Source: Eubacteriales bacterium
Lineage (GTDB): Bacteria; Bacillota; Clostridia; Oscillospirales; CAG-382
NCBI GenBank assembly: GCA_045651025.1
Contig: JAZRRU010000070.1
Span: 1 to 41,878 of the forward strand
Direction: 5' to 3'
Length of the DNA: 41,878 nt
Position numbers and translations under genes: made by a program. Each line of letters starts with the position of its first letter. Within the stretch, counting starts at the first letter, position 1. Below the pieces are notes generated by a model. It made no database searches and was not told where the DNA came from. It saw only the letters and a program-made list of their open reading frames with translations. Of this stretch, positions 2,346 to 29,758 are shown one piece after another.

Positions 2346-3695
2346 ATGAGCAGAACTACAGATATGACTGTCGGAAGCCCGACAAAGCATTTATTAAAAT
2401 TTGCATTTCCGCTGATAATAACAAATTTAGGCCAACAGCTTTATATGATAGCCGATGCTGCAATAGTTGGCAGAGGTGTAGGTGTTAAAGCATTGGCGGC
2501 AGTAGGTGCAACAGACTGGAGCTATTGGCTGATCCTTTGGACTCTTGTTACGCTAACACAAGGATTTTCAACATTTGTTTCAAGATATTTCGGAGAAAAA
2601 AACTATAAAGCAATGAATAAATCGATTGCGATGTCTGCATTGCTTTGTTTGATCATTGGCGGTTTTTTTACAATTTTAGGCATTATTGTTTCAGAACCTC
2701 TGCTTGCACTGTTAAAAACCCCTTCAGATATTGTTGACGGTGCAAAAACATATCTGATAACAATGATTTCGGGCACTTTGATAGTTACGGCATATAACAT
2801 GGCAGCGTCCATCCTTCGAGCATTCGGCGACGGAAAAAGTCCGCTCGTTGCAATGATAATATCAGCACTTTTGAATATCGGACTTGATATTTTATTTGTC
2901 TTTGCATTTGATCTTGGCATTTTCGGTGCAGCGATTGCTTCTGTTATTGCACAACTTGTATCTTTTATATATTGTCTTATAAAAATAAAAAAGATAGAGT
3001 TTGTAAAACTGGACAGATCCTCTTGGGAAATAGACATGAAGATGATAAAAGATCTTCTTGTTTTCGGTATGCCTCTTGCTCTTGAAATGATCGTTATTGC
3101 ACTTGGCGGAATAATCTTACAGTCAAGCATAAATGCGCAGGGCAGTATATTTATCGCAGGTTACACGGCAACAAATAAGGTTTACGGTCTTCTCGAAAGC
3201 AGCGGTATATCGTTGGGACTTGCATGTTCAACATTTCTTGCTCAGAATTTCGGGGCAGGAAACTTTGAAAGAGTTAAAAAAGGTGTAAAAACAGCGATAC
3301 TTATCGTTATACTTATGGCACTTTTCGTTATGGCATTTGTTTACGTTATCAGGGGAGATCTTTTACAGCTTTTTCTTGATGTTAACGAAGAAGGCGGCAC
3401 GGAAGCTTTGGAAATAGCGGTCCACTATATAACAATATTGCTTGTTTGCCTTATCAGCCTTTATCTTCTGCATATTTTCAGAAACGCATTGCAGGCAATG
3501 GAAGTTTCTGTATGGTCGATGATATCGGGATTTATTGAATGTGCGGCAAGAGTTTTTATGTCAAAAGCCGTTATTCATTGGATGGGCAGTGATGCTTTAT
3601 TTGTATCTGAACCGGTGGCATGGATAGGTGCATTACTGTCTGTAATGATACCGTATTTATATTACAGCAAAAAACTGCTTAAAACGGAGAAATAA
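2346..3695 (+). CDS. MATE family efflux transporter
   Basis: 449-aa, 12-TM-like protein. The N-terminal pattern PLIITNLGQQLYMIADAAIVGRGVG and its overall length are typical of MATE/NorM-type exporters. Confidence 0.85.
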   Translation: MSRTTDMTVGSPTKHLLKFAFPLIITNLGQQLYMIADAAIVGRGVGVKALAAVGATDWSYWLILWTLVTLTQGFSTFVSRYFGEKNYKAMNKSIAMSALLCLIIGGFFTILGIIVSEPLLALLKTPSDIVDGAKTYLITMISGTLIVTAYNMAASILRAFGDGKSPLVAMIISALLNIGLDILFVFAFDLGIFGAAIASVIAQLVSFIYCLIKIKKIEFVKLDRSSWEIDMKMIKDLLVFGMPLALEMIVIALGGIILQSSINAQGSIFIAGYTATNKVYGLLESSGISLGLACSTFLAQNFGAGNFERVKKGVKTAILIVILMALFVMAFVYVIRGDLLQLFLDVNEEGGTEALEIAVHYITILLVCLISLYLLHIFRNALQAMEVSVWSMISGFIECAARVFMSKAVIHWMGSDALFVSEPVAWIGALLSVMIPYLYYSKKLLKTEK

Positions 3696-4442
3696 ATGAA
3701 AATTAAAGAATGGTTTCAAAGAGAAGCAAAAGAAACTGTTTTGCTTTTACGCTGCATACCTACAACGGTTGTTACCCTGTTCGTAGTAAGTGTAATATGC
3801 ATGAATCTTCTTGCAAACAAAACGCTTCTTCAGCTCGACTGGATCGCACTCGACGGCGGAATACTTATCTCGTGGCTGTCTTTCATGTGTATGGACGTTA
3901 TCACGAAGCATTTCGGCCCGAAAGCGTCGAACAAGATCTCGGTTCTCGCAACGCTGATTAACCTCATGACCTGTCTCGTGTTTTTCGTTGCAAGCGCGAT
4001 ACCCTCGAACGTAGGGGATTACAGCGCGTTTGACGGTATATTCGGCGGAACGTGGTTCATCCTCGTCGGAAGCACAATCGCTTTCCTCGCTTCCGCGGTC
4101 ATAAATAACACGCTTAACTGGACGATAGGGAAGTGCTTCAGGAAGAACCCCGACGGAAAGCTCGCCTACGCAACGCGAACCTACGTCTCGACGTTCATCG
4201 GTCAGTTTTTCGATAACTTTATCTTCTCGGTCATCGTTTTCGTGTTTTTTGCGCCTATCTTCTGGGACGGCTTCTGCTGGACGGTCTTGCAGTGCGCGAT
4301 GTGCGCGCTTGTCGGCGCGTGCGCCGAGCTTTTGATGCAAATTCTTTTCTCCCCGATGGGCTATAAAATCTCGAAAAAATGGAAATCGGAGTCGATCGGT
4401 AGGGATTACCTCGATTATATCGAAAAGGAGCGCAGAAAATGA
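3696..4442 (+). CDS. yhhQ: queuosine-precursor transporter-like membrane protein (YhhQ/DUF165, VUT family)
   Basis: Matches YhhQ-like signature stretches (SFMCMDVITKHFGPKASNK; STFIGQFFDNFIFSVIVF). The start codon abuts the MATE stop. The GC/codon shift occurs inside this ORF. Confidence 0.7.
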   Translation: MKIKEWFQREAKETVLLLRCIPTTVVTLFVVSVICMNLLANKTLLQLDWIALDGGILISWLSFMCMDVITKHFGPKASNKISVLATLINLMTCLVFFVASAIPSNVGDYSAFDGIFGGTWFILVGSTIAFLASAVINNTLNWTIGKCFRKNPDGKLAYATRTYVSTFIGQFFDNFIFSVIVFVFFAPIFWDGFCWTVLQCAMCALVGACAELLMQILFSPMGYKISKKWKSESIGRDYLDYIEKERRK

Positions 4443-5133: not shown

Positions 5134-7434
5134 TTATCCGTTAACCTTTTCGAGGTCTTTTTTGCGGATTTCGACACGTCTGACCTTACCGCTGATGGTC
5201 TTCGGGAGCTCGTCGACAAATTCGACGATTCTCGGGTATTTGTAGGGTGCGGTGTGTGTCTTGACGTATTCCTGAATCTCTTTTTTGAGCTCGTCCGTGC
5301 CGACGGTGTTCTTCGTGAGCACGATCGTCGCCTTTACGATCTGACCGCGTACCTCGTCGGGAACGGGAGTGATGGCACATTCAAGAACGTAGGGAAGCTC
5401 CATGATAACGCTTTCGATCTCGAACGGTCCGATACGGTAACCCGACGACTTGATAACGTCGTCGATACGTCCGACGTACCAGAGATAACCGTCCTCGTCC
5501 ATCGTCGCCTGGTCGCCCGTGTGGTAATAACCGTCATACCATGCTTCGTTCGTCTTTTCCTCGTCGAGGTAATAGCCGATGAAGAGTCCGCAGGGAACGT
5601 TTTCGCTCGTGCGGATGCAGATTTCGCCCGCGTCGCCCGTCTTGCATTCGTTTCCGTCGGGATCGAGGATAACGACGTCATAGAGGGGGCTGGGCTTACC
5701 CATAGAGCCGAGCTTCGAAGTCGAGCCGACGAAGTTTGCAATCGAGAGAGTGGTCTCTGTCTGACCGTAACCCTCCATGATAGTCAGTCCCGTTGCTTTC
5801 TTGAACTGGTTGAAAACCTCGGGGTTGAGCGCTTCGCCCGCGGTCGTAGCGTATTCTATCGAAGAAAGATCGTATTTCGAGAGGTCTTCCTTGATGAAGA
5901 AGCGGTACATCGTGGGGGGCGCACAGAAGGTCGTGATGTTGTACTTCTTGAAAAGGGGAAGGATGTCGTCGGAGTGGAATCTGTCGAAGTCGTATGTGAA
6001 AATACCTGCCTCGCAGAGCCACTGACCGTAGAGCTTGCCCCAGAGCGCTTTGCCCCATCCCGTGTCGGAGATCGTGAAATGAAGTCCGTCGGGGTTTACG
6101 TTGTGCCAATATTTCGCGGTCGTATAATGACCGAGCGCGTATTTGTAAGAGTGTGTCGCGATTCTCGGATATCCCGTCGTGCCCGAGGTGAAGAGCATGA
6201 GCATCGGGTCGTTTCCGCAGGGAGTGTTCTCGTTGCGGAAGTAATGGGTGCTGAAACGCTCCATTTCGACGTTGAAGTCGTACCAACCGTCTTTCGTTCC
6301 GCCGACGAGTATCTTCTTGATCTCGGGGAACTCGCTTGCCGCCTTTTCCGCTTCGGCGGATACGCTGCCGTCAGCGGTGCAGACGATTGCTTTAACTCCG
6401 GCTGCTTTGTATCTGTAACTAAAGTCGTGCTCGACGAGCTGGTTCGTCGCGGGAATCGCGATCGCGCCGATCTTGTGAAGCGCGAGCATACAGAACCAGA
6501 ACTGATAGTGACGCTTGAGGACGAGCATAACCGTGTCGCCCTTTTTGATTCCGAGCGATTCGAAGTAGTTCGCCGTCTTTGCGGAGTAGCGCTTCATATC
6601 GTTGAACGTGAATCTTCTTTCGGACTTGTCGTTGCCGACCCACATCATCGCGAGCTTGTCGGGATTCTTCTCGGCGATAGCGTCAACACAGTCAAAAGCA
6701 AAGTTGAACTTGTCTTCGTTCTTGAACTTGATTCCGTTGAAAACGCCCTGCTCGTCAAGCGTCGTTTCAACAAAATTGTCTGCGACGGTCTTGACGTTCG
6801 AGTCCGCTTTTTTGGCTTTCGCGCCAATAAACGGTGCTTCGGGGTAGGACTCCGCAAAATCGCCGTCCTGCCGGTTGAGAACGACCGCCTGGAACTCGCA
6901 TCCGCCCTCGCTCACCGCGATCATACCGTGAGGAATAATACTGTTGTAGAATATCGAGTCGCCCTCGTTGAGAACGCTGATATGATTGCCGACCTGAACC
7001 TTGAGCGAGCCCTTTACGATAACGTCAAACTCCTGACCGTTGTGGGAGTTGAGCTTGATAGGTGCGTTCTGCTCGGATTCCATGTAGGGGAGCTTTACGA
7101 GGAACGGCTCGGCGAGCTTGTCCTTGAACTTCGGTGCAAGGTTGTAGTAAACGCCTGCCTGCTTCTTGATTATTTCAAGTCCTTCGCCTTTTCTCGTGAT
7201 CGCAAAAGAAGTAAGCGTCGTGCTCGTACCCTCGATAATATCGACGACCTCGACGTTACACGCTTTTGCGCATTTATAAATAAAAGTAAAACTGAAATCG
7301 GTCTCGCCCTGCTCGAGAAGACGATAGTCCTCAAGCGTAACGCCCGTGAGGGCTGCGAGCTCTTCCTGCGAATAGCCCTTTGCCTCACGCAAGCCCTTGA
7401 TACGGCTTGCAACCTCTTTCAAATTGATTTCCAT
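5134..7434 (-). CDS. fusion protein: XRE-type HTH + cupin domain + medium-chain-type acyl-CoA synthetase (ANL adenylating enzyme)
   Basis: The start is taken at MEINLKEV (ATG 7434) with a GGAAGGAG RBS; the ORF-track start at 7524 lies inside the T-box terminator. Domains: aa ~5-60 HTH (GYSQEELAALTGVTLEDYRLLEQG), aa ~100-187 cupin (G-x-E-F...GD...PHG), aa ~240-766 ligase. Ligase motifs: TSGTTGYPR, YGQTE, YHTGD, GRIDDVIKSSGYRIGPFEIE, ISGKVRR. Confidence 0.8.
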   Translation of the reverse strand: MEINLKEVASRIKGLREAKGYSQEELAALTGVTLEDYRLLEQGETDFSFTFIYKCAKACNVEVVDIIEGTSTTLTSFAITRKGEGLEIIKKQAGVYYNLAPKFKDKLAEPFLVKLPYMESEQNAPIKLNSHNGQEFDVIVKGSLKVQVGNHISVLNEGDSIFYNSIIPHGMIAVSEGGCEFQAVVLNRQDGDFAESYPEAPFIGAKAKKADSNVKTVADNFVETTLDEQGVFNGIKFKNEDKFNFAFDCVDAIAEKNPDKLAMMWVGNDKSERRFTFNDMKRYSAKTANYFESLGIKKGDTVMLVLKRHYQFWFCMLALHKIGAIAIPATNQLVEHDFSYRYKAAGVKAIVCTADGSVSAEAEKAASEFPEIKKILVGGTKDGWYDFNVEMERFSTHYFRNENTPCGNDPMLMLFTSGTTGYPRIATHSYKYALGHYTTAKYWHNVNPDGLHFTISDTGWGKALWGKLYGQWLCEAGIFTYDFDRFHSDDILPLFKKYNITTFCAPPTMYRFFIKEDLSKYDLSSIEYATTAGEALNPEVFNQFKKATGLTIMEGYGQTETTLSIANFVGSTSKLGSMGKPSPLYDVVILDPDGNECKTGDAGEICIRTSENVPCGLFIGYYLDEEKTNEAWYDGYYHTGDQATMDEDGYLWYVGRIDDVIKSSGYRIGPFEIESVIMELPYVLECAITPVPDEVRGQIVKATIVLTKNTVGTDELKKEIQEYVKTHTAPYKYPRIVEFVDELPKTISGKVRRVEIRKKDLEKVNG

Positions 7435-7480: not shown

Positions 7481-7766
7481 AAAAAAGACTCGTCCCAAAG
7501 AAAACTTTGAGACGAGTCATTCAACTCGCGGTACCACTCAAATTGCGAACACGATGATTCGCCACCTTACGGGCTCAATCAAGCCCTTGCTTTCACGCAG
7601 CAATACGGAAGGAACCTAATTAACGTTCGTTGTTCAGCCCTCCAACTCGGAAGTGATGGGTCATTGGAAAGCTCTGTCATTGGCTCGCAGCAACCGCCAA
7701 CTCTCTCAAAACTCGGCAATCCGACCGTCTTCGTCATAGTTGTTCATTATATTCAAATTTCATTGT
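7481..7766 (-). promoter_or_regulatory. T-box riboswitch leader, probable Ile (AUC) specifier
   Basis: Minus-strand RNA features:
- K-turn context UGAC...CGAG.
- AGAGAG bulge (7701-7706).
- Distal loop GGUUGCUGCGAG.
- T-box motif GAGUGGUACCGCGAG (7527-7539).
- Terminator GACUCGUC-N16-GACGAGUC plus U6 (7481-7518).
The specifier loop is non-canonical. The best reading is CCC-AUC-A next to the basal helix GAAG/CUUC (AUC at 7655-7657). Confidence 0.8.
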
Positions 7767-7771
7767 AACGC

Positions 7772-7800
7772 ATTATACTCGTTTATAACACTATTGTCAA
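7772..7800 (-). promoter_or_regulatory. consensus sigma-A promoter for the Ile T-box/ligase unit
   Basis: Minus strand reads TTGACA (7800-7795), 17-nt spacer, TATAAT (7777-7772). Confidence 0.75.
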
Positions 7801-7848: not shown

Positions 7849-9132
7849 TCAAATGCATGCGAGCGCCTGTTCGATGTCTGCGATAATGTCAACCTTGTCC
7901 TCAAGACCGCAGGAAAGGCGAATAAGATCGGGAGCAACGCCCGCCGCCTTGAGTTCGGCGTCGTTCATCTGACGGTGAGTTGCGTTTGCGGGATGCAAGC
8001 AGCAGGTCTTCGAGTCCGCAACGTGCGTTTCGATCGATGCGAGCTTGAGGTTCTTCATGAACTTCTCCGCAGCCGTTCTTCCGCCGTCAACGCCGAACGA
8101 AATTACACCGCAGGAGCCGTTGGGAAGATATTTCTGACCGAGAGTATAGTTCTTGTCGTCCTCAAGACCGCAATAGCGTACCCATGTGATCTTCGGATGC
8201 TTCTTGAGGTATTCGGCAACCGCCTGCGCGTTTTCGCAATGACGCGCCATTCTTACCTCAAGACTTTCAAGCCCGAGGTTGATGAGATATGCGTTCTGGG
8301 GCGATTGGATCGCGCCGAGATCGCGCATGAGCTGTGCGGTTGCTTTCGTGATATACGCACCCTCGAGACCGAATCTTTCGGTATAAGTAACGCCGTGATA
8401 GCTTTCGTCGGGAGTGCAAAGTCCGGGGAACTTGTCGGGATATTTCGTCCAGTCAAATTTGCCGGAATCTACGATGCATCCGCCGACACCGCTTGCGTGA
8501 CCGTCCATATATTTCGTCGTGGAGTGAATTACGATATCTGCGCCCCATTCGATCGGACGGCAGTTGATGGGTGTTGCAAACGTGTTGTCGATAATAAGCG
8601 GTACGCCGTGACTGTGCGCCGCTTTTGCAAAGCGTTCGATGTCAAGCACATCGAGCGCGGGGTTTGCAATCGTTTCGCCGAAAACTGCTTTCGTGTTCGG
8701 ACGGAAAGCGTTTTCGAGCTCCTCGTCCGAGCAGTCGGGAGCAACGAACGTAAATTCGATGCCCATTCTCTTCATAGTAACCGAGAAGAGGTTGAACGTT
8801 CCGCCGTAGATCGCGGACGAACAAACGACGTGGTCACCGCAGGACGCGATGTTGAAGACGCTGTAGAACGAAGCCGCCTGACCGCTCGAGGTCAGCATCG
8901 CCGCGCTACCGCCTTCAAGCGCCGCAATACGAGCCGCAACGCAGTCGTTCGTGGGGTTCTGCAATCTGCTGTAAAAATATCCCGAGGCCTCGAGGTCAAA
9001 AAGCTTGCCCATCTCCTCGCTCGTATCGTATTTGAAGGTAGTGCTCTGATAAATAGGAATCTGACGGGGCTCGCCGTTTTTGGGAGTATAGCCCGCCTGA
9101 ATACATTTTGTACCGATTTTATAGTTGTTCAT
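7849..9132 (-). CDS. metY: O-acetylhomoserine sulfhydrylase-type PLP enzyme (Cys/Met metabolism family)
   Basis: 427 aa with family hallmarks: YSRLQNPT, SSGQAA, the PLP-lysine context HSTTKYMDGH, and C-terminal IRLSCGLED. A GAGG RBS precedes it, and only 17 nt separate it from the upstream gene. Confidence 0.9.
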   Translation of the reverse strand: MNNYKIGTKCIQAGYTPKNGEPRQIPIYQSTTFKYDTSEEMGKLFDLEASGYFYSRLQNPTNDCVAARIAALEGGSAAMLTSSGQAASFYSVFNIASCGDHVVCSSAIYGGTFNLFSVTMKRMGIEFTFVAPDCSDEELENAFRPNTKAVFGETIANPALDVLDIERFAKAAHSHGVPLIIDNTFATPINCRPIEWGADIVIHSTTKYMDGHASGVGGCIVDSGKFDWTKYPDKFPGLCTPDESYHGVTYTERFGLEGAYITKATAQLMRDLGAIQSPQNAYLINLGLESLEVRMARHCENAQAVAEYLKKHPKITWVRYCGLEDDKNYTLGQKYLPNGSCGVISFGVDGGRTAAEKFMKNLKLASIETHVADSKTCCLHPANATHRQMNDAELKAAGVAPDLIRLSCGLEDKVDIIADIEQALACI

Positions 9133-9149
9133 TATATTTACCTCACGAT

Positions 9150-11609
9150 CTACTTTTTGAGTCCAAGCATTTCGATGGATTCATCACGCATTTTGTATTT
9201 GAGGATCTTACCTGCGGCATTCATCGGGAACTGATCGACGAAAACGAAGTATCTCGGAACCTTGTGACGCGCGATATACGCGTTTCCGAACTCCTTCATC
9301 TCGGCTTCGTCCGCCGTTTCACCTTTGTGAAGAATAACCCATGCACAGCATTCCTCACCGTATCTTTCGTCCGGAACGCCGACGCCCTGAACGTCGCGAA
9401 CCTTCGGGTTTGTAAGATAAAATTCTTCGATCTCGCGGGGATAGAGGTTCTCGCCGCCGCGGATGATCATATCCTTGAGTCGGCCTGTGATCTTGTAATA
9501 TCCGTCGGGAGTTCTGCAAGCGATGTCGCCCGAATGGAGCCATCCGTCTGCATCGATCGCCTGCGCGGTTGCCTCGGGCATTTTGTAATATCCCTTCATG
9601 ATGTTAAAACCGCGTGCAACGAACTCGCCGCTTTCGCCGTCGGGAAGCTCCGAACCCGTTTCGGGATCGATGATCTTGCATTCAACTCCGGGGAACGCGC
9701 TTCCGACCGTCTCAACACGGTGATCAAGGTCTTCGTTAACCTCGCCCATCGTGCATCCGGGCGCCGCTTCGGTCTGACCGTAGACGGAAATTATCTCGCG
9801 CATGTTCATTTCAACGGCGGCGCGGCGCATCAGGTCCGCGGGACAGTTTGCACCTGCCATGATTCCCGTTCTCATGTATGAAAAATCGGGTTTTTCAAAA
9901 TCCTTGTGGTTGAACATCGCGATGAACATCGTCGGAACACCGTTGAAGCAGGTGATTCTTTCGTCGTTAACGCAAGCGAGCGACGATTTCGGCGAGAAAT
10001 AGGGGATGGGACAGAGCGTACCGCCGTGAGTCATCATCGAGGTCATCGAGAGAACCATGCCGAAGCAGTGGAACATCGGAACCTGAATCATCATGCGGTC
10101 TGCGGTCGAGAGGTCCATTCTGTCGCCGATGATCTTGCCGTTGTTGACGATATTTCTGTGGGTAAGCATAACGCCCTTCGGGAATCCCGTCGTACCCGAG
10201 GTGTACTGCATGTTGCATACGTCGTCGGGCTTTACGAGAGAAGCGCGTCTGCGAACCTCTTCACGCGGAACGAGCGAAGCGCGCGAGAGCATCTGCTCCC
10301 AGTTAAGACATCCGTCCATATTAAATCCAACCGTAACGACGTTACGGAGGAAGGGGAGATTCTTCGAGTAAAGGGGCTTGCCGGGGGTGAGATTCTTGAG
10401 CTCGGGACAGAGCTCGCTGATGATCTCTTTATAGTTAATATCCTTGCAGTCCTCGATCATAACGAGCGTGTGGGTGTCGGACTGACGAAGGAGATATTCG
10501 ATCTCGTGTATCTTGTATGCAGTGTTGACCGTAACGAGAACCGCGCCGATCTTCGTGGTTGCCCAGAACGTGACGTACCATTGAGGCACGTTCGTTGCCC
10601 AGACCGCAACGTGATCGCCCGCTTTTACGCCGAGCGAGATAAGTGCCGCGGCACATTCGTCAACGTCTCGACGGAACTGCTCGTAGGTTCGTGTGTAGTC
10701 AAGCGTAGGGTATTTGAACGCATACTGGTCGGGGTAATTCTTGCACATCGTGTCAAGAACGTCCGAGAACGTCGCGTCAATAAGGTCGTATTTTTTCCAG
10801 ACGTAGGTGCCGGTTTTTGCGCGGTTATAGTACGCGCGGTCAAAATCCTTTTTTTCGCGATTGAGCGACGAAATATAGTTTGCAAAATGAGTAAGAACGA
10901 TGTCCGCATCGTTGATCTCGTCGTTCCACGCCGCGCAGATAAATCCCTCGAAGTTAAGCGAAGAGAGCGCGTTGATAAGATTTTCGACGGGAAGCTCGCC
11001 CTCGCCGATAAGAACCGTTTTACCGTCCTTCATATCGCCGAGACGAACGTACTTTATGTACGCGCCGAGAACCTTGATCGTAGTTTCAGCCGTTTCACCC
11101 GCGCCGAAGTAAGTTCCTCTTACGTTCCAGCAGGCACCGATAACGGCAGACGAGAAAAAGTTGATTATGTCAATAACGTTTTGAGTATCCGAAAGAAAAC
11201 CGACCGTTTCGAGAAGAATATTTACGTCGCAATCCTCGGCACGCTTGATGGCGGGCGCGAGCTTTTCCTTCAAAACGTCGAAAGAAACCTCTTTTTCAAC
11301 GCGCACGATAACGTTCGAAACGCCCGAGACAGCCGCCATATCGACGTATTTCGTGATTGCTTCGGCGTTCGCCTCGTCGGATTCGATTGAGTAGGGGTAG
11401 TTAAGTGCGGAAACCGAAAGATTTCGGTTGATGAGCTTTCTTTTCGCGTCGGAAACGCGGTCACGGCGGAGAATACTGTCGTGATGCTGGTTGCGTTCTT
11501 TTATCGCATCGTATATCTCAAATCCCGAAAAGCCGTAGTCGTATGCATAACGGCAGGTATCGAGAAACGAGGGCCGATTCACATATTTTGTTGAAAATAC
11601 GATTTTCAT
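9150..11609 (-). CDS. fusion protein: xylose-isomerase-like TIM-barrel domain + acyl-CoA ligase (ANL family)
   Basis: aa 1-~250 resemble the AP-endonuclease-2/sugar-phosphate-isomerase barrel (NILLETVG, YVRLGDMKDG..GEGELP, FEGFICAAWNDE). aa ~260-819 carry YTSGTTGFPKGVMLTH, YGQTE, WLHSGD, GRLKDMIIRGGENLYPREIE and AAGKILK. The start lies 2 nt after the stop of the upstream gene. Confidence 0.8.
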   Translation of the reverse strand: MKIVFSTKYVNRPSFLDTCRYAYDYGFSGFEIYDAIKERNQHHDSILRRDRVSDAKRKLINRNLSVSALNYPYSIESDEANAEAITKYVDMAAVSGVSNVIVRVEKEVSFDVLKEKLAPAIKRAEDCDVNILLETVGFLSDTQNVIDIINFFSSAVIGACWNVRGTYFGAGETAETTIKVLGAYIKYVRLGDMKDGKTVLIGEGELPVENLINALSSLNFEGFICAAWNDEINDADIVLTHFANYISSLNREKKDFDRAYYNRAKTGTYVWKKYDLIDATFSDVLDTMCKNYPDQYAFKYPTLDYTRTYEQFRRDVDECAAALISLGVKAGDHVAVWATNVPQWYVTFWATTKIGAVLVTVNTAYKIHEIEYLLRQSDTHTLVMIEDCKDINYKEIISELCPELKNLTPGKPLYSKNLPFLRNVVTVGFNMDGCLNWEQMLSRASLVPREEVRRRASLVKPDDVCNMQYTSGTTGFPKGVMLTHRNIVNNGKIIGDRMDLSTADRMMIQVPMFHCFGMVLSMTSMMTHGGTLCPIPYFSPKSSLACVNDERITCFNGVPTMFIAMFNHKDFEKPDFSYMRTGIMAGANCPADLMRRAAVEMNMREIISVYGQTEAAPGCTMGEVNEDLDHRVETVGSAFPGVECKIIDPETGSELPDGESGEFVARGFNIMKGYYKMPEATAQAIDADGWLHSGDIACRTPDGYYKITGRLKDMIIRGGENLYPREIEEFYLTNPKVRDVQGVGVPDERYGEECCAWVILHKGETADEAEMKEFGNAYIARHKVPRYFVFVDQFPMNAAGKILKYKMRDESIEMLGLKK

Positions 11610-11611
11610 TC

Positions 11612-13000
11612 TTAGTTCTCCTCAAAAACGATCTTGTTGAGGGCGTTGATGTACGCTCTGATGCTTGCCGCAACGATGTCTGTGGAGATTCCGTTGCCCG
11701 AGTAGAGTTTTCCGTTGTTGCGGAGGCGTACGAGAGCCGAACCGAGTGCCTCTTTGCCTTCGGTTACCGACTGAACCTGAAAATCGTCGAGCTCGTAGTG
11801 ATAACCGACGCACTGCTCGATCGCGCGGAACGCCGAGTCGATAGGACCGTCACCCGTGCTGACGCCCGAGATGATCTCGCCGTCGCATTTGAGAGTTACC
11901 TGTGACATAGAGCTAGTGAGGTTACTGCTGTTAGTGGTATAACTCTCGAGATGATAGGTCGAGGGTGCCTGCATCGCAGAGCTTGCGATAAGCGCCTCGA
12001 GCTCCTTCGCACCGACTGCACCCTTCTTCTCGCAGACCTGCATGAGCGCTTTGTGAACGTTTCCGCAGTCGGACTCGTTGAGGTCATATCCGAGAAGCTG
12101 AGCCGCCTGTGCAACCTGCGCGATAGAGCTGTCGGAATCGAGAAGTATCTTCTTCTTTTCGCTTACGGTTTCGTCGGATTCGTAGGATTCGTGGTTTATG
12201 CTTGCAAGCATATCTTCGATGCTTGCGTGAATTTTCGTGTTGTTGAGGTCGGTGCCTGCATCAAGCTGGGATGCGCAAATATTCACCGCATCCGCGATCT
12301 CGCCAGTGAGAAGCACGTTCTTTCCCGCCATCGCGCATTTGAGTCCGTCTGCACCGTTTTTGATAGCCGCAACCGCCGACGCAACCGCCATGTTGATGCG
12401 GTCGGAAACCTGAACGTAAACAGGAGCGTCGATTTCTGCTTTGACCTTCATGACAAGATCGGCGATCTCGTCGGGGAGGGAAATACCCGCATCGTCGCAG
12501 AGCGTGATAACGCCCGCGCCGTTTTCTTTTGCTTCCCTTGCCGCAGAAATAAGGAACTCAACGTCGGCTCTCGTCGCGTCGAGCGCGCAGAATTCAACGT
12601 CTGCACAGAGTTCTTTTGCCGCTTTTACGAGCTCTGCGATCTTGAGGAGCATTTTTTCGGCTTTTACGTGGTAGGTATATTCCATCAAAACGGTCGAAAC
12701 GGGAAGCGCAACCTGAAGTCGGGGATTCTTCGCTTCCTTGATGCATTCGAAAGCGTTCTTCACGTCGTCAGCCGTAAAACCGACGGGAATCGCAACGATT
12801 GCGTTCTTTACGTTTTGACAAATAGTCTTGTATATAATAGCATCCTCGCGAAGATTCTTCACGGGCGCGAGCTCAATTGCGTTCGCACCGATTCTGTCAG
12901 CGCAAACGGCGATTGCGGTCTTTTCACGGAAAAGAAGCGCGATCTCGCGATCCTCGGAGAGCTTTTTGAGAGTAATGTCGGAAATGATTATGTTTTTCAT
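11612..13000 (-). CDS. LeuA (2-isopropylmalate/citramalate synthase)-like protein with degenerate catalytic motifs and a retained LeuA_dimer-type C-terminal domain
   Basis: The overall layout is collinear with IPMS. The C-terminus VTEGKEALGSALVRLRNNGKLYSGNGISTDIVAASIRAYINALNKI matches the regulatory domain. The N-terminal DTTLRDGEQ motif reads DITLKKLSE, and HxHNDxG reads QVSDRIN. Start chosen at ATG 13000 (AAAGGA RBS); ATG 13018 lacks an SD. Confidence 0.75.
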   Translation of the reverse strand: MKNIIISDITLKKLSEDREIALLFREKTAIAVCADRIGANAIELAPVKNLREDAIIYKTICQNVKNAIVAIPVGFTADDVKNAFECIKEAKNPRLQVALPVSTVLMEYTYHVKAEKMLLKIAELVKAAKELCADVEFCALDATRADVEFLISAAREAKENGAGVITLCDDAGISLPDEIADLVMKVKAEIDAPVYVQVSDRINMAVASAVAAIKNGADGLKCAMAGKNVLLTGEIADAVNICASQLDAGTDLNNTKIHASIEDMLASINHESYESDETVSEKKKILLDSDSSIAQVAQAAQLLGYDLNESDCGNVHKALMQVCEKKGAVGAKELEALIASSAMQAPSTYHLESYTTNSSNLTSSMSQVTLKCDGEIISGVSTGDGPIDSAFRAIEQCVGYHYELDDFQVQSVTEGKEALGSALVRLRNNGKLYSGNGISTDIVAASIRAYINALNKIVFEEN

Positions 13001-13050
13001 TTTTCTGGTTCCTTTCATTGTGGGAGCGAAAATATTTTTGAAGCTTCAAC

Positions 13051-13325
13051 AAAAAAACGTTTCCGTCTCCTTGTCGATCCAAAGAGACGAAAACGTCAAA
13101 AAAACATTTCCGCGGTACCACTCTTTTTCATCCGCTTCGGATGCACTCAGATGCAATCACATCTATGCTCTGTAACGGGAGCACCCGTCTGCCCTTACTT
13201 CGAAAATTCACGGCAGACGCTCCGCGGTGAGTTCTGCGAACCTTCCCCGATGCCTCGCACCAAACGGCATCTCTCTCAAGGCGAAAGTATTTCGCGTACT
13301 ATTCCGCATCACAGCGTTTAATATT
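13051..13325 (-). promoter_or_regulatory. T-box riboswitch leader, Leu (CUC) specifier
   Basis: Minus-strand RNA features:
- Basal helix GCGG/CCGC.
- Specifier loop AAUAGUA / AGAA-CUC-A (CUC at 13229-13231).
- AGAGAG bulge.
- Distal loop GGUGCGAG.
- T-box GAGUGGUACCGCG (13111-13123).
- Terminator CGUUUUCGUCUC-N14-GAGACGGAAACG plus U7 (13051-13095). Confidence 0.88.
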
Positions 13326-13332
13326 GAGTCGT

Positions 13333-13361
13333 ATTTTACCACGTTATCGCGGTTTTGTCAA
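13333..13361 (-). promoter_or_regulatory. sigma-A promoter (extended -10) for the Leu T-box operon
   Basis: Minus strand reads TTGACA (13361-13356), 17-nt spacer ending in TGg, TAAAAT (13338-13333). Confidence 0.75.
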
Positions 13362-13382
13362 GATATTTTTCGATTTTGAGTG

Positions 13383-14936
13383 TTAACAATTTTCGTTCAG
13401 GCATTCAAAAATCTCATCAACCTCTTTCGCGTTGCGCTTCTTCGTGAATGCGCTTACGATCGGCACGACGATGAACGAAACAGCCATCGCACAAACACCC
13501 ATCTCTGGCGATTTTGCCGCTGCGGATGCAAAATTCGAGTTAAGCGTGATAACGAGCGTCGAAATACCGACGGTGAGAAGTCCTGCGACCATACCTGCGT
13601 ATGCACCGGCCTTCGTGATCTTCTTCGAAAAGAGTCCCCAGATGTAGGGTCCGATGAAGCAACCCGAAACGACGCCCCACGAGAACGACATAAGACTTAC
13701 GATGATCGGAATGTCCTGCGTTGCAAAAATGAACGAGCACGCAACGAACGCGAGACAGAAAAGACGGGTGAGAAGCATTTGGTTGTCGGGATTTATCGTC
13801 TTTTTGCTGACAGTGGGGATGAAGTCGACTGCAACCGCCGACGCCGAAGTAAGAACGATCGACTGAAGCGTTGACATCGAAGCGGAGATCAACAGAATTA
13901 TAATAAGCGCAAGAAGAATGATCCCAAAAGTTCCGTTTGTCAGAACCGTCATAAGTACGCTCGGTATTACCGAGTCAATACCGCCCTCGGGGAGTTGACC
14001 TCCAAGAATAAGACGCGACGTACTGCCGATGAGGTATGCACCACAGCCGATAACCGCACAGAAAATCGTCGAGATGATCGTTCCGCGCTTGATTGCCGCC
14101 GTGTCCTTGATCGCATAGAACTTGCCGATCATCTGCGGGAGCCCCCACGTACCGAAGCTCGTGAGCATGATGTTGAAGCACAAGAACCTGAAAGCGTTAC
14201 CGCCGAAGATGTTGGTAAGCTGGCTTCCCGTGACGGGATTCGGGTCGTCGGGAAGCGGCTTGAAGCTACCGAGATTTTCCAAGAGCCCCGAAATACCGCC
14301 GACGCTTTCGTGGTTAAGCACGACGAAAACAAGGCAAACAACGCCTGCAATCATAATAACGCCCTGAATAAGGTCGGTGTAAGCCGTCGCGACGTATCCG
14401 CCCGCAACAAGGTAAACCGCAGTAAGACAAGCGATCATAAGCATCCAAACCCAGGTTTCAACTCCGGGGAATACTGCGTTGAAGATCGAACCGAGCCCCT
14501 TGTAAACAGCGGCTGTATAGGGTACGAGAAACACGAAGATAACGACCGAAGCCAAAAGCTTCATCTTTTTCGAGGAGTATCTCTTCTCGAAATATTCGGG
14601 CATGGTTTTTGCGTTGAGCTTTTTCGTGATCTTTCTCGTGCGGTTCGCAAACAAAAGCCACGAAAGGAGACAACCGAGAACTGCGTTGCCAACACCGATC
14701 CAGATACTTCCGAGCCCGATGTTCCAACCGTGCTGACCTGCGTATCCGACAAAAACGACCGCCGAAAAATAGGTCGTGCCGTATGCGAACGCCGTCGACC
14801 AAGCGCCGATGTTTCGCCCTCCTATAAGAAAATTATCAAGAGTTTTTGATTTGCCGTAACTTATACAACCGACAAGTGCCATCAAAACTGCATATATGCA
14901 GAGACCTATGATTGTGTAAAGCTGTGCATCTGTCAT
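13383..14936 (-). CDS. sodium:solute symporter (SSS) family transporter
   Basis: 517-aa polytopic protein with an SSS-like N-terminal pattern (FLIGGRNIGAWSTAFAYGTTYFSAVVFVGYAG) and about 13 hydrophobic segments. An AGGAGG RBS precedes it, and a Tyr T-box lies directly upstream. Confidence 0.85.
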   Translation of the reverse strand: MTDAQLYTIIGLCIYAVLMALVGCISYGKSKTLDNFLIGGRNIGAWSTAFAYGTTYFSAVVFVGYAGQHGWNIGLGSIWIGVGNAVLGCLLSWLLFANRTRKITKKLNAKTMPEYFEKRYSSKKMKLLASVVIFVFLVPYTAAVYKGLGSIFNAVFPGVETWVWMLMIACLTAVYLVAGGYVATAYTDLIQGVIMIAGVVCLVFVVLNHESVGGISGLLENLGSFKPLPDDPNPVTGSQLTNIFGGNAFRFLCFNIMLTSFGTWGLPQMIGKFYAIKDTAAIKRGTIISTIFCAVIGCGAYLIGSTSRLILGGQLPEGGIDSVIPSVLMTVLTNGTFGIILLALIIILLISASMSTLQSIVLTSASAVAVDFIPTVSKKTINPDNQMLLTRLFCLAFVACSFIFATQDIPIIVSLMSFSWGVVSGCFIGPYIWGLFSKKITKAGAYAGMVAGLLTVGISTLVITLNSNFASAAAKSPEMGVCAMAVSFIVVPIVSAFTKKRNAKEVDEIFECLNENC

Positions 14937-14961: not shown

Positions 14962-15232
14962 TAAAAAGCCCCCGTATTCCAAAATGAATACAGAGGACGA
15001 GAAAACCCGTGGTACCACCTCTATTTACCGTTCTCTCGCGATCACGGCCTTTCCGAGTGCCAATCAGCACCCTCGTTCTGTGACGGGAACTCCCGTTGCG
15101 GCCTACTCGGTTCACCCTTTCGGTGCACTGCTCGCAGAATGTATTCAGCAAGAACGTCCCCATTGTCTCGCACCACCCGACAACTCTCTCAAGGCTTCGA
15201 AAATGCCTACTTGTTTCTGCTCAAACGCATTT
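14962..15232 (-). promoter_or_regulatory. T-box riboswitch leader, Tyr (UAC) specifier
   Basis: Minus-strand RNA features:
- Basal helix GCAGAA/UUCUGC.
- Specifier loop ACAAGUA / GAA-UAC-A (UAC at 15141-15143).
- AGAGAG bulge.
- Distal loop GGUGGUGCGAG.
- T-box GGUGGUACCACG (15008-15019).
- Terminator hairpin (14969-14996) followed by a U-rich run. Confidence 0.88.
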
Positions 15233-15238
15233 TTTAGC

Positions 15239-21848: not shown

Positions 21849-23213
21849 TTAAATTTTAGGAAGAGCTTCGATGCTCTTTTTGATTTCGTCGTCGGTGGGG
21901 ACATAGTCGGTCATAGTACCGTTGTTGACCTGCTCGTAAGCGGGCATATCGAAATAACCCGTACCCGTGAGACCAAAGAGAATGACCTTTTCCTCGCCCG
22001 TTTTCTTGCATCTGAGCGCTTCGTCAACTGCGGCTCTGATTGCATGGGAGGATTCGGGCGCAGGGAGAATACCCTCGACCTTCGCGAAAAGCTTCGCCGC
22101 CTCGAAAACCTCGGTCTGCTTGTAGGACGTTGCCTTCATAAGACCGTCGTCATAGAGCTGGGAAACGACCGAGTTCATGCCGTGGTAACGGAGTCCGCCT
22201 GCGTGGCTCGATGCGGGGATGTATTCCGAACCGAGAGTATACATCTTTATGAGAGGAGTCATGTGACCCGTGTCGCCGTAGTCGTATACAAACGAGCCCC
22301 TCGTGAGCGAAGGACAGGACGACGGCTCAACCGCGATAAATTCGGGGTCGTGAGTGCCGTTTATCTTGTCAACGACATAGGGAGCGATAAGTCCTCCGAG
22401 GTTCGAGCCGCCGCCGGCACAGCCGATAACAACGTCGGGATAGATGCCGTATTTATCGAGCGCGGCTTTCGCTTCGAGACCTATGATAGACTGATGAAGA
22501 AGAACGTGGTTCATAACGCTGCCGAGAACGTAACGGCAGTTTTCTGTGTTGATTGCCTTTTCGACCGCCTCGGAAATAGCGCATCCGAGCGAGCCCGTAG
22601 TGTTCGGGAATTTTTCGTTGATTCGTCTGCCAACCTCGGTCGTCATTGAGGGGGAGGGAATTACTTCCGCTCCGAACGTGCGGATAACCTCTCGTCTGTG
22701 GGGCTTCTGCATAGCCGAGCCCTTTACCATAAACACCGTGAGGTCAACGCCGTAGAACGCCGATGCCATCGCGAGCGCCGTGCCCCATTGTCCTGCGCCG
22801 GTTTCGGTCGTGAGCGAGGTTATGCCCTGCTCTTTTGCGTAGTAGACCTGCGCGACGGCGGAGTTGAGCTTGTGCGAGCCCGAGGTGTTTGCGCCCTCGT
22901 ATTTGTAGTAAATATGTGCGGGCGTGCCGAGTGCGCGTTCGAGATGATATGCGCGCGTCGTGGGCGACGGACGGAACATTTTATAGAAATCGATGATACC
23001 CTCGGGGATGTCGATAAAAAGATCGTCCTCGTTAAGCTCTTGTCTTGCAAGCTCGTCGCAGAATACCTTCTGCAACTGCTCAAAGGTCACGGGCTCCTTT
23101 GTGACGGGGTCAAGCATAGGCGCGGGCTTGTTTTTCATAGCGGCGCGGATGTTGAGCCACTGCTTCGGTATCTCGTTTTCCGAAAGAAATATCTTGTAAG
23201 GAATCGTAGACAT
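21849..23213 (-). CDS. trpB: TrpB2-type tryptophan synthase beta-like PLP enzyme
   Basis: 454 aa starting at MSTIPYKI (ATG 23213, AAGGAGA RBS). It has the PLP-lysine context NTSGSHKLNSA, a GGGSN loop and the long TrpB2-style N-terminus. The ORF-track start at 23294 lies inside the T-box. Confidence 0.88.
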   Translation of the reverse strand: MSTIPYKIFLSENEIPKQWLNIRAAMKNKPAPMLDPVTKEPVTFEQLQKVFCDELARQELNEDDLFIDIPEGIIDFYKMFRPSPTTRAYHLERALGTPAHIYYKYEGANTSGSHKLNSAVAQVYYAKEQGITSLTTETGAGQWGTALAMASAFYGVDLTVFMVKGSAMQKPHRREVIRTFGAEVIPSPSMTTEVGRRINEKFPNTTGSLGCAISEAVEKAINTENCRYVLGSVMNHVLLHQSIIGLEAKAALDKYGIYPDVVIGCAGGGSNLGGLIAPYVVDKINGTHDPEFIAVEPSSCPSLTRGSFVYDYGDTGHMTPLIKMYTLGSEYIPASSHAGGLRYHGMNSVVSQLYDDGLMKATSYKQTEVFEAAKLFAKVEGILPAPESSHAIRAAVDEALRCKKTGEEKVILFGLTGTGYFDMPAYEQVNNGTMTDYVPTDDEIKKSIEALPKI

Positions 23214-23241: not shown

Positions 23242-23492
23242 AAAAAACCGCAAGATATACCAAACCTTTGAGGCGATATATCTCGCGGTGCCACTCAAAA
23301 TTATACTCAGCGGGTACGTAAATACCCCTCCCGTTGACGCAGGGATTCTTGCGGCGCGGCATACTTGCAAAAACTTTCCGCCTTGCTCCTCTCGGGTCCA
23401 TTCGACGAGAACTTACCTGTCGGACTTCCACCGTCTCCGACTCGCTGAAGGCAGTAATCTTGCTTACTACTCCCGATCACAGGATTTTTAAA
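23242..23492 (-). promoter_or_regulatory. T-box riboswitch leader, Trp (UGG) specifier
   Basis: Minus-strand RNA features:
- Basal helix UCGGG/CCCGA.
- Specifier loop AGUAGUA / GAA-UGG-A (UGG at 23398-23400).
- Distal loop GGUGGAAG.
- T-box GAGUGGCACCGCGAGA (23284-23296).
- 12-bp terminator CCGCGAGAUAUA/UAUAUCUUGCGG plus U6 (23242-23288), overlapping the T-box motif. Confidence 0.88.
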
Positions 23493-26950: not shown

Positions 26951-27027
26951 GGTTCGGTAGTTCAGTTGGTTAGAATGCCGCCCTGTCACGGCGGAGGTCG
27001 TGGGTTCGAGTCCCATCCGAATCGCCA
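26951..27027 (+). tRNA. tRNA-Asp (GTC), CCA encoded
   Basis: 77-nt cloverleaf: acceptor GGTTCGG/CCGAATC, anticodon loop CTGTCAC, T-arm GTGGG-TTCGAGT-CCCAT. Confidence 0.92.
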
Positions 27028-27069
27028 ACTTTTTTCAATCCTTTCCGTTTCAGCTGCTCCGCAAGACGT

Positions 27070-27145
27070 GCGGATTTAGCTCATTTGGTAGAGCGCCACC
27101 TTGCCAAGGTGGAGGTAGCGGGTTCGAGCCCCGTAATCCGCTCCA
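27070..27145 (+). tRNA. tRNA-Gly (GCC), CCA encoded
   Basis: 76-nt cloverleaf: acceptor GCGGATT/AATCCGC, anticodon stem CCACC/GGTGG with loop TTGCCAA. Confidence 0.92.
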
Positions 27146-27169
27146 GACTTGATCCGAAAGGATCGGTAT

Positions 27170-27243
27170 GGCGCCATAGCCAAGCGGTAAGGCAGAGGTC
27201 TGCAACACCTTTATCCCCAGTTCGATTCTGGGTGGCGCCTCCA
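27170..27243 (+). tRNA. tRNA-Cys (GCA), CCA encoded
   Basis: 74-nt cloverleaf: acceptor GGCGCCA/TGGCGCC, anticodon loop CTGCAAC, T-arm CCCAG-TTCGATT-CTGGG. Confidence 0.9.
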
Positions 27244-27279
27244 AGAAAAATACAACTTCATATATAAAACGTCTTTGAT

Positions 27280-27355
27280 GCTGATGTGGCACAGGTGGTA
27301 GCGCACATCCTTGGTAAGGATGAGGTCATGAGTTCGAGTCTCATCATCAGCTCCA
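27280..27355 (+). tRNA. tRNA-Thr (GGT), CCA encoded
   Basis: 76-nt cloverleaf: acceptor GCTGATG/CATCAGC, anticodon stem CATCC/GGATG with loop TTGGTAA. There is one mismatch in the D-stem. Confidence 0.85.
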
Positions 27356-27431
27356 GCGGATTTAGCTCATTTGGTAGAGCGCCACCTTGCCAAGGTGGAG
27401 GTAGCGGGTTCGAGCCCCGTAATCCGCTCCA
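27356..27431 (+). tRNA. tRNA-Gly (GCC), second identical copy
   Basis: Sequence identical to 27070-27145. It starts on the nucleotide after the CCA of tRNA-Thr. Confidence 0.92.
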
Positions 27432-27436
27432 AAAAT

Positions 27437-27513
27437 GGTTCGGTAGTTCAGTTGGTTAGAATGCCGCCCTGTCACGGCGGAGGTCGTGGGTTCGAGTCCC
27501 ATCCGAATCGCCA
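27437..27513 (+). tRNA. tRNA-Asp (GTC), second identical copy
   Basis: Sequence identical to 26951-27027. Confidence 0.92.
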
Positions 27514-27540
27514 TTGCTTTCCCAATCGGGAAAGCGATAT

Positions 27541-27616
27541 GCCTCTGTAGCTCAGTTGGTAGAGCAGGAGACTGAAAATCTCCGTGTCATTGGTTCAATT
27601 CCGATCGGAGGCACCA
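27541..27616 (+). tRNA. tRNA-Phe (GAA), CCA encoded
   Basis: 76-nt cloverleaf: acceptor GCCTCTG/CGGAGGC (one G-U pair), anticodon stem GGAGA/TCTCC with loop CTGAAAA. Confidence 0.9.
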
Positions 27617-28297: not shown

Positions 28298-28333
28298 TAC
28301 TAAAAAAGGTAAATCTTATACTTCCCACAGACC

Positions 28334-28364
28334 AAAAAAGACCGTCATTGACGGTCTTTTTCTA
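28334..28364. terminator. bidirectional terminator between convergent genes
   Basis: AAAAAAGACCGTC-ATT-GACGGTCTTTTT between stops at 28297 (+) and 28375 (-). Confidence 0.8.
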
Positions 28365-28374
28365 TTTAACTGCC

Positions 28375-28956: not shown

Positions 28957-28982
28957 ATTTCTGCTCCCAAATCGTTTTGTTT

Positions 28983-29011
28983 ATAATACCATAAATAAAA
29001 ATGACTGTCAA
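28983..29011 (-). promoter_or_regulatory. sigma-A promoter for the 193-aa gene, embedded in the upstream terminator
   Basis: Minus strand reads TTGACA (29011-29006), 17-nt spacer, TATTAT (28988-28983). Confidence 0.65.
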
Positions 29012-29031: not shown

Positions 29032-29035
29032 TTGT

Positions 29036-29749: not shown

Positions 29750-29758
29750 ATTTGCCTC

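Follow-up and report, generated by a model that had tools for sequence, protein, structure and literature searches.

The window studied here comprises positions 1-41,878 of contig JAZRRU010000070.1 of an Eubacteriales bacterium from the CAG-382 lineage of Oscillospirales (assembly GCA_045651025.1). On its minus strand a sigma-70-type promoter and a T-box leader precede three co-directional open reading frames (ORFs), which code for a catalytically dead paralog of 2-isopropylmalate synthase LeuA (hereafter LeuA*), a fusion of a TIM barrel to an acyl-CoA ligase (hereafter FUS), and a MetY-type O-acetylhomoserine sulfhydrylase (Table 1). An earlier note, made from the letters alone, had described this arrangement as a leucine-starvation operon and had suggested that its ligase activates isovalerate for reductive carboxylation. 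The promoter it described is present, the intergenic gaps of 2 nt and 17 nt that it gave are exact, and matches to a promoter or terminator inside the operon are only weak, in keeping with its statement that no internal promoter or terminator is visible. The domain content that it had assigned to the three products also stands: the LeuA-like protein combines HMGL-like and LeuA_dimer domains, the fusion combines AP_endonuc_2, AMP-binding and AMP-binding_C, and the third protein is a Cys_Met_Meta_PP enzyme.

The Rfam T-box family RF00230 matches the leader over its full model (1-219) with 134.6 bits, where the gathering score is 93 bits (E 6e-30), and the alignment places the leucine codon CUC in the specifier register, where it is followed by a purine within a specifier loop closed by GCGG/CCGC. 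The other landmarks previously named were all located, namely the AGAGAG bulge, the GGUGCGAG distal loop and the T-box sequence GAGUGGUACCGCG, the last of which supplies the UGGN bulge for pairing with the NCCA end of the tRNA. The terminator is likewise found with its tract of seven U residues; its stem, however, is of 18 pairs, including 3 G-U pairs, and not of the 12 bp given earlier, and it folds with -33.5 kcal/mol (z = -3.7 against shuffles). As its 5' arm overlaps the 3' arm of the antiterminator in the common segment UUCGUCUCUUUG, the two structures are mutually exclusive. Readthrough at T-boxes occurs when the cognate tRNA is uncharged. That the window leader is a Leu T-box is near certain, and it resembles the ilv-leu leader of B. 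subtilis (RF00230) in its CUC specifier, its UGGU bulge and its attenuation by alternative terminator and antiterminator structures; like that leader it would also control leucine supply, and both operons encode a LeuA-family protein. Unlike in B. subtilis, the LeuA-family protein here is dead, leuBCD and ilv genes are lacking from the operon, and the T-box precedes an enzyme that is a fusion with an acyl-CoA synthetase.

When each species was scanned through a single genome, at least 592 stretches encoding FUS relatives were recovered, and our locus comparisons use the best 80 of these (L001 and so on). All 80 come from metagenome-assembled genomes (MAGs) of ruminant, other herbivore or human guts, labeled as Clostridia, Oscillospiraceae, Acutalibacteraceae or Christensenellaceae, along with two 'Spirochaetales' bins. 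All ORFs of these loci were clustered, and the recurrent neighbor families were annotated with Pfam and NCBIfam. The gene for LeuA* lies directly upstream of that for FUS in 77 of 77 informative loci, the remaining 3 of the 80 being cut by a contig end, and in five distant lineages whose LeuA* is 34-39% identical it overlaps or abuts the gene for a TIM-ligase fusion of 826-847 aa every time. LeuA*-FUS is thus a strictly conserved two-gene module. In the two 'Spirochaetales' MAGs (L071 and L073) the module is 70% identical to that of the window and has no T-box, which points either to horizontal transfer into spirochaetes or to mis-binning of contigs.

The leucine specifier is conserved along with the module. 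Specifiers were read with a regex-based caller, which failed on ~15% of leaders and whose calls were checked against Rfam alignments for the window and for L072, where the register was confirmed; Rfam hits also confirm the T-box leaders of L017, L027, L030, L039, L065, L072 and L081. Before LeuA*, the caller read CUC in 55 loci (and in 3 more where LeuA* had been missed by ORF calling), CUG in 2 and CCC in 2. Orthologous leaders with CUC accordingly number at least 58, including ones in which the flanks of the specifier loop have diverged, which bears out the earlier view of a Leu T-box operon. The two CCC (Pro) leaders belong to L011 (~6290-6540) and L041, both from 'Ructibacterium sp.' MAGs, and differ from CUC by a single base; they could represent a degenerate or a re-targeted switch. 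A further group of loci (L028, L029, L032, L034, L042 and L057) has no T-box before LeuA* and carries the whole set of genes in one run: LeuA*, FUS, a branched-chain aminotransferase (BCAT), a P-loop protein, the alpha, beta and gamma subunits of a 2-oxoacid:ferredoxin oxidoreductase (VOR), a stand-alone helix-turn-helix (HTH)-cupin protein, and then a ligase. The ~600 nt upstream of this run (e.g. L028:5983-6611) contain a conserved stem-loop to which no Rfam family was matched, and a permissive Rfam scan of these leaders returned only a chance-level hit.

LeuA* probably starts at ATG 13000, after an AAAGGAA ribosome-binding site, which gives it the same 462 aa as its relatives. Pfam detects the HMGL-like domain with 101.7 bits and LeuA_dimer (PF08502) with 114.1 bits against a threshold of 24.9; the protein nevertheless falls below all NCBIfam cut-offs for LeuA (242.8 vs 532 for NF002086 and 222.9 vs 598.7 for TIGR00973). 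Alignment to solved LeuA structures shows the active-site arginine position occupied by lysine, the metal-binding aspartate by lysine, the catalytic glutamate by leucine, and the HxH metal motif by QxS. Because of these replacements LeuA* lacks the arginine and the catalytic glutamate as well as metal ligands of both kinds, just as the label of a dead LeuA had implied. In terms of motifs, SDITLKKLSED stands in place of DTTLRDGEQ, FCALDATR has a leucine before DATR, and VQVSD (QVSDR) replaces HCHND. The same catalytic residues are absent from all 76 orthologs and from ~105 clusters at 50% identity. These clusters are the full-length proteins (453-489 aa) among the best 150 clusters of a family survey; the metal aspartate and the HxH motif are missing in all of them, while GDGP(I/V)D is kept in nearly all. 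Canonical LeuAs enter a search with LeuA* at 29-34% identity only, and the few named members of the family are called 'hypothetical', 'IPMS regulatory domain-containing' or '2-isopropylmalate synthase' in the databases.

The overall architecture of LeuA is retained. An AlphaFold model of LeuA* (predicted local distance difference test, pLDDT, 92.6) comprises the DRE-TIM barrel, the linker subdomains and the regulatory domain. Its barrel superposes on those of LeuA from Listeria, Neisseria and Cytophaga at 1.6-1.9 A, and a fold search aligned the entire protein with LeuA of M. tuberculosis, the leucine-bound structure 3fig being among the matches. When the regulatory domain by itself was searched against PDB sequences, nothing of use emerged, the matching structures of bacterial-type LeuA being of the catalytic domain only. 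The regulatory-domain motifs GDGP(I/V)D (GDGPID in the window), TEG..A.G and STDI are conserved. LeuA* may sense leucine, since the regulatory domain of LeuA is intact and highly conserved in it. Feedback-resistant mutations of LeuA (R529H, G532D and L535V) are documented, and no argument on the GDGP motif is drawn from them here. LeuA* thus shares with LeuA its architecture and regulatory motifs, and differs from it in constituting a family of pseudoenzymes, ~460-475 aa long and invariably accompanied by FUS.

FUS joins two domains. Its C-terminal part is an ANL-type acyl-CoA synthetase with all core motifs present (YTSGTTGFPKG, YGQTE, SGD, GRLKD and the C-terminal GK), and its best NCBIfam match is PRK12583, with 663 bits under a cut-off of 832. 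The N-terminal xylose-isomerase-like barrel was modeled by AlphaFold2 (AF2) with pLDDT 89.6, and Foldseek relates it with probability 1.0 and template-modeling (TM) scores of 0.70-0.75 to UlaE, YcjR and ketose 3-epimerases, at 10-17% identity. Of the Glu-Asp-His-Glu metal tetrad of such enzymes, the first residue is kept as E134; the aspartate, histidine and second glutamate appear as N162, R189 and A228, an assignment of moderate confidence because it derives from low-identity alignments with 3wqo, 8xix and 4kw2. The family shows no variation at N162 and R189, nor at R57, K58, N61, R62, E134, R164, D192 and H241 among the polar and basic residues. A search with this barrel alone returned only ligase fusions or their fragments. 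Mean identity to the window is 89% for the ligase (across 75 species) and 68% for the TIM barrel of FUS, and 82% for the regulatory domain, 64% for the barrel and 55% for the linker of LeuA*. These per-domain identities place the strongest constraint on the ligase and on what is the leucine-binding domain in real LeuA.

The neighborhood of the module in relatives offers clues to its function. The recurrent order is a CUC T-box, LeuA*, FUS, optionally an Amidohydro_2 gene, an AUC T-box with a ligase, a GUA T-box with a second ligase, BCAT, a CbiA/ParA-like P-loop protein, and VOR alpha, beta and gamma. The ligases of the Ile and Val units, which we term HCL, are HTH-cupin-MbcS-like proteins. 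Among the distant lineages, one locus (L085) carries LeuA*, FUS, BCAT, the P-loop protein, a ferredoxin and VOR alpha/beta/gamma in a single run; in L083 the three VOR genes, and in L086 the BCAT gene, precede LeuA*-FUS. Elsewhere a member of the Glu/Leu/Phe/Val-dehydrogenase (ELFV) family of amino-acid dehydrogenases lies 31 nt after FUS (L080), or a class I/II aminotransferase follows it (L045). The earlier note had raised against its own proposal that no 2-oxoacid:ferredoxin oxidoreductase lies in the window. That statement is true; yet relatives carry a VorB-type enzyme beside LeuA*-FUS, and together with the aminotransferases or dehydrogenases and the Ile and Val T-box ligases found there it provides a strong context for the idea of isovalerate activation and reductive carboxylation.

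The window itself carries the Ile unit. Immediately beyond MetY lies a fourth T-box of the window, missed in the earlier note, with the specifier AUC (Ile) and an Rfam score of 89 bits, slightly below the gathering score (E 4e-20). It precedes an HCL whose true start is ATG 7434, the listed ORF start (TTG 7524) falling inside the terminator. This HCL scores 456.4 bits against the MbcS model NF047394 and does not reach its cut-off of 850, so that the resemblance holds at the family level only. Across the loci, HCL leaders read AUC in 17+6 cases and GUA in 13+2; the Ile-type and Val-type HCLs form separate clades, and the nearest neighbor shares the specifier in 30 of 30 cases. MbcS of S. aureus activates 2-methylbutyrate and isobutyrate, with isovalerate being a poor substrate, and supplies primers for branched-chain fatty acids from exogenous acids (PMC10026030). 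The Ile and Val T-boxes thus match the substrates of MbcS, and a separate ligase for the Leu arm, namely FUS, fits because isovalerate is poorly used by MbcS. The differences are that HCL has an N-terminal HTH-cupin region, that FUS belongs to another, PRK12583-like ANL subfamily, and that MbcS feeds lipid synthesis and, as far as described, is not under T-box control. We predict that the HCL of the window is a 2-methylbutyrate-CoA ligase, and, from the Leu T-box and the VOR/BCAT context, that FUS is an isovalerate-CoA ligase.

Table 1. Features of the LeuA*-FUS operon, of the window around it, and of the neighbor families in the 80 loci compared
Feature	Position or occurrence	Strand	Basis
Sigma-70-type promoter: TTGACA, 17-nt spacer, TG-extended TAAAAT	13333..13361	-	11/12 matches, TG present
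T-box leader: Stem I, specifier loop, AG bulge, distal loop, Stem III, antiterminator T-box sequence	13080..13321	-	Rfam RF00230
Specifier codon CUC (Leu)	13229..13231	-	Rfam alignment register, GAA-CUC-A
Intrinsic terminator, 18-bp stem + U7	13049..13097 (stem 13097-13056)	-	Folding
LeuA*, 462 aa from ATG 13000 (ORF extends to 13018)	11612..13000	-	Pfam, alignment, AF2
FUS, whole gene, 819 aa	9150-11609	-	ORF and domains
FUS N-terminal domain, aa 1-250, xylose-isomerase-like TIM barrel	10860..11609	-	AP_endonuc_2 (PF01261), 59.9 bits vs 31.1
FUS C-terminal domain, aa ~276-819, ANL acyl-CoA synthetase	9150..10784	-	AMP-binding 313.9 bits, AMP-binding_C 52.3 bits
MetY-type O-acetylhomoserine sulfhydrylase	7849..9132	-	TIGR01326
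Ile unit: perfect promoter TTGACA-17-TATAAT (7800-7772), T-box (7746-7505), terminator (7518-7487)	7487..7800	-	Rfam
HCL, HTH(XRE)-cupin-MbcS-like acyl-CoA synthetase, 766 aa	5134..7434	-	Pfam HTH_3, Cupin_2, AMP-binding
Tyr (UAC) T-box	14990-15234	-	99.9 bits
SSS symporter	13383-14936	-	
Trp (UGG) T-box	23266-23489	-	93.0 bits
TrpB-like (TrpB2-type) enzyme	21849-23213	-	NF009057, 663 bits vs 366
Seven tRNA genes (Asp, Gly, Cys, Thr, Gly, Asp, Phe)	26951-27616		
Phage-type genes	~28300-38600		
P22-like portal	35614-37347		
Large terminase	37217-38581		
HCL family, often two in tandem	33/80 loci		Pfam and NCBIfam, MbcS-like
Class IV aminotransferase (BCAT)	21/80 loci		IlvE NF009897, 479 bits vs 307
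CbiA/ParA-like P-loop protein	25/80 loci		Pfam
VOR alpha/beta/gamma	11/80 loci		Alpha is VorB, NF005507, 541 bits vs 399
Amidohydro_2, directly after FUS	27/80 loci		Pfam

We propose, with moderate confidence, that the operon is the Leu arm of a T-box-gated salvage of carboxylic acids to branched-chain amino acids. Under this proposal, uncharged tRNA-Leu(GAG) would pair with CUC and stabilize the antiterminator, so that LeuA*-FUS, and here also MetY, would be transcribed. FUS, as an AMP-forming ligase, would convert isovalerate to isovaleryl-CoA, which a VorB-type oxidoreductase, presumed to be encoded outside the window in this genome and lying next to the module in relatives, would turn into 2-oxoisocaproate at the expense of reduced ferredoxin and CO2; leucine would then be formed by a branched-chain aminotransferase or, alternatively, by an amino-acid dehydrogenase. 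In parallel arms, 2-methylbutyrate and isobutyrate would be handled by MbcS-like ligases whose T-boxes read Ile (AUC) and Val (GUA), the window carrying the Ile arm. LeuA*, translationally coupled to FUS, might act as a leucine-binding partner that adds end-product feedback to the signal of tRNA charging. The biosynthetic direction is favored because T-boxes switch on in starvation and because the ligases are AMP-forming. The T-box with its specifier, the genes and their domains, the lost catalytic residues, and the conservation of neighborhoods and specifiers are directly shown; the substrate of FUS, the direction of flux, and the roles of LeuA* and of the TIM domain are what we infer here, the functional assignments throughout being drawn from sequence, structure prediction and gene context. 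Allison and co-workers reportedly established in the 1960s-80s that rumen bacteria make leucine, valine and isoleucine by reductive carboxylation of isovalerate, isobutyrate and 2-methylbutyrate. The predicted steps match this classical VOR-dependent scheme of rumen and gut anaerobes and methanogens, running from acid to acyl-CoA to 2-oxoacid to amino acid, and the gut habitat of the relatives matches as well; the classical scheme, in contrast, comes without the arrangement of one T-box per ligase and without the LeuA* and TIM accessories.

Several observations weigh against this proposal. Homologs of VOR and BCAT were sought in the window and none was found, and most of the closest relatives (L001-L025) are without VOR or BCAT within 8 kb. 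About 10 of the 77 loci have no T-box ahead of LeuA*. FUS lies below every NCBIfam cut-off, and its solved relatives in a PDB search, which are feruloyl-, malonyl- and fatty-acyl-CoA ligases, give no clue to its substrate. LeuA* and the TIM barrel are left unexplained by the pathway, because reductive carboxylation needs neither, and the leucine binding suggested for LeuA* is read from motif conservation. Finally, MetY is co-oriented in the window and starts 17 nt after FUS, and in the distant L083 a MetY that is 80% identical to that of the window follows FUS together with MetA, so that a functional link is conceivable.

With respect to the two accessory domains, we can offer a tentative suggestion that is considerably less secure than the pathway itself: LeuA* may be a leucine-binding regulatory subunit of FUS, with the two barrels serving as a docking pair. 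The 2-nt junction of their genes, which elsewhere is an overlap, suggests that the two proteins form a stoichiometric complex. A fuller version, which we find somewhat doubtful, is that LeuA* and the FUS barrel constitute a pseudoenzyme pair that gates isovalerate activation by leucine, as the Leu arm of a regulon of Leu, Ile, Val and Phe T-boxes. The operon would, on that speculative account, be under double control, sensing the charging of tRNA-Leu through the T-box and free leucine through the regulatory domain of LeuA. The specifier codon might then predict the acid used by each ligase, and the regulon might conceivably explain, at the genetic level, how hundreds of uncultured gut Clostridia assimilate branched-chain volatile fatty acids.

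The Phe member of such a regulon would be represented in L081, where a Phe (UUC) T-box (2107-2350) precedes genes for a PaaK-like ligase and a 143-aa ACT-domain protein (2420-4180), directly upstream of the Leu module. The ligase scores 534 bits, under a cut-off of 646, and the corresponding families (f14/f23) are found also in L002, L007, L011 and L013. By analogy, this unit suggests a salvage of phenylacetate to phenylalanine by like logic. The pairing of a PaaK-type phenylacetate-CoA ligase with a small protein of the amino-acid-binding type also offers a parallel for a ligase-sensor pair, the role of the ACT partner being putative; it differs from LeuA*-FUS in that its ligase is of another subfamily and its sensor fold would be ACT rather than the LeuA regulatory domain. 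Homologs of the PaaK-like protein, the P-loop protein and Amidohydro_2 were sought in the window, and none was found.

Other explanations of the locus have to be weighed against salvage to leucine. It is possible, though unlikely, that the chemistry is a different or new one, in which FUS activates isocaproate, 2-hydroxyisocaproate or a 3-methylbutenoate, or in which the acyl-adenylate or the acyl-CoA is acted upon in a new active site made up jointly by the barrels of LeuA* and FUS. The strict retention of both barrels with the ligase in more than 100 clusters at 50% identity is consistent with such an activity, as are the invariant polar and basic residues of the FUS barrel, which suggest a ligand pocket. 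However, canonical catalytic and metal residues have been lost in both barrels, and both diverge more quickly than either the ligase or the regulatory domain, as would be expected of scaffolding or regulatory parts. That the Ile and Val arms do without these domains, and that FUS, at ~24% identity to MbcS, falls in another ligase subfamily, would also accord with a different or new chemistry; isovalerate, on the other hand, fully explains the VOR/BCAT context.

We consider it rather more doubtful still that the locus serves the salvage of lipid primers, with FUS and HCL making isovaleryl-, 2-methylbutyryl- and isobutyryl-CoA mainly as primers for FabH, and with the T-boxes switching on when the primer-yielding amino acids are short. 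HCL is MbcS-like and a primer role is documented for MbcS (PMC10026030), and as the acyl-CoA is a branch point the ligases could serve both fates. Nevertheless, these ligases cluster with VOR and BCAT, with LeuDH-type enzymes and with other aminotransferases, and not with fab genes; tRNA charging reports the need for amino acids in translation; and a Phe T-box on a PaaK-like ligase has no lipid rationale.

The earlier note treated all three genes as one unit and took the misfit of MetY as a hint of undescribed chemistry, and neither point is supported by the comparison of loci, a lack of co-conservation of the trio being an outcome that the note itself had named as refuting. That the trio forms a single functional unit joining sulfur amino-acid chemistry to leucine is, in our judgment, very improbable. 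It is true that FUS and MetY are separated by just 17 nt, in which there is neither a promoter nor a terminator, that MetY-MetA follows FUS in L083, and that 7 loci have CysK-like genes downstream of FUS; we read the latter two as a loose clustering of amino-acid genes. Conversely, MetY adjoins FUS in none of the 80 species loci, and in the closest FUS relative (89% identity) LeuA*-FUS leads straight to the next T-box and ligase without MetY. The orthologs of MetY at 93-94% identity stand singly or in MetY-MetA pairs in unrelated neighborhoods with no riboswitch, the exact sequence of the window MetY not being on record, and MetY is an ordinary member of its family that passes the TIGR01326 cut-off (582 bits vs 495.1) and has the pyridoxal phosphate (PLP) lysine in HSTTKYMDGH. 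Among the 80 loci the sole MetY within 8 kb of FUS is that of L030, ~2.6 kb downstream and past a Lys riboswitch. As MetY adjoins FUS in 0/80 loci and its orthologs occur elsewhere, the conserved unit is of two genes and not three, and because MetY lies outside this module, its misfit is no evidence for an unknown chemistry. MetY is probably a lineage-specific passenger that is co-transcribed with the module. The lysine riboswitch of L030 (10543-10714, 83 bits) lies right after FUS and controls dapA-like and lysA-like genes, the MetY homolog (13033-14304) being located ~2.3 kb beyond it. In 27 of the 80 loci (e.g. L010:2678-3487, L016 and L033) the position that MetY has in the window is taken by an Amidohydro_2 (PF04909) gene of ~267 aa, which begins ~40 nt beyond FUS, still within the Leu T-box unit, and has no NCBIfam match.

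Least plausible of all is that the cluster degrades branched-chain amino acids to acids through aminotransferase, VOR, acyl-CoA and reversed ligases, for although BCAT and VOR run oxidatively in amino-acid-fermenting Clostridia, T-boxes respond to starvation for the cognate amino acid, the opposite of a catabolic need, AMP-forming ligases are effectively irreversible and conserve no ATP, and the clusters are without phosphotransacylase or kinase genes.

Two further T-box units accompany the Leu and Ile units in the window. A Tyr T-box precedes a gene for an SSS symporter with weak similarity to PutP, PanF, MctC and ActP, a pairing also seen in L081 (12887-13130); the symporter could import tyrosine or an aryl-acetate precursor. 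A Trp T-box precedes a gene for a TrpB-like PLP enzyme in what looks like a unit for the salvage of indole to tryptophan. Apart from these, the window has a cluster of seven tRNA genes, and a phage-type region, which besides its portal and terminase genes contains large ORFs without a Pfam match and is probably a prophage or a remnant of one.

With regard to precedent, the T-box RNA is standard, the biochemistry of the pathway is old, and MetY is ordinary, and each of these is already known. The LeuA*-FUS module and the logic of one T-box per ligase appear to be undescribed: our literature search, outside which most subscription papers lay, found no published account of a LeuA*/TIM-ligase module or of T-box-controlled ligases for branched-chain acids, and no gene-level account of the activating enzymes or regulation for branched-chain volatile fatty acids, which given that scope is weak evidence. 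Branched-chain volatile fatty acids are used by rumen and hindgut bacteria for amino-acid synthesis and are fed to ruminants so that fiber is digested better. If our proposal is true, it would name genes, in uncultured bacteria of herbivore guts, for a route that since the 1960s has been known from biochemistry alone, and the specifier codon (Leu, Ile, Val or Phe) would label the predicted substrate of each ligase, allowing testable enzyme assignments across at least 592 stretches.

These findings also bear on annotation, as LeuA* represents a large and unannotated family of pseudoenzymes. Automatic annotation would mislabel the locus as an ordinary leuA T-box, and the naming of LeuA* as '2-isopropylmalate synthase' would make metabolic reconstructions over-call leucine prototrophy in gut MAGs. 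Moreover, if LeuA* does sense leucine, the family would present a case in which the allosteric domain of an enzyme has been reused, on its own, to regulate an enzyme of salvage.

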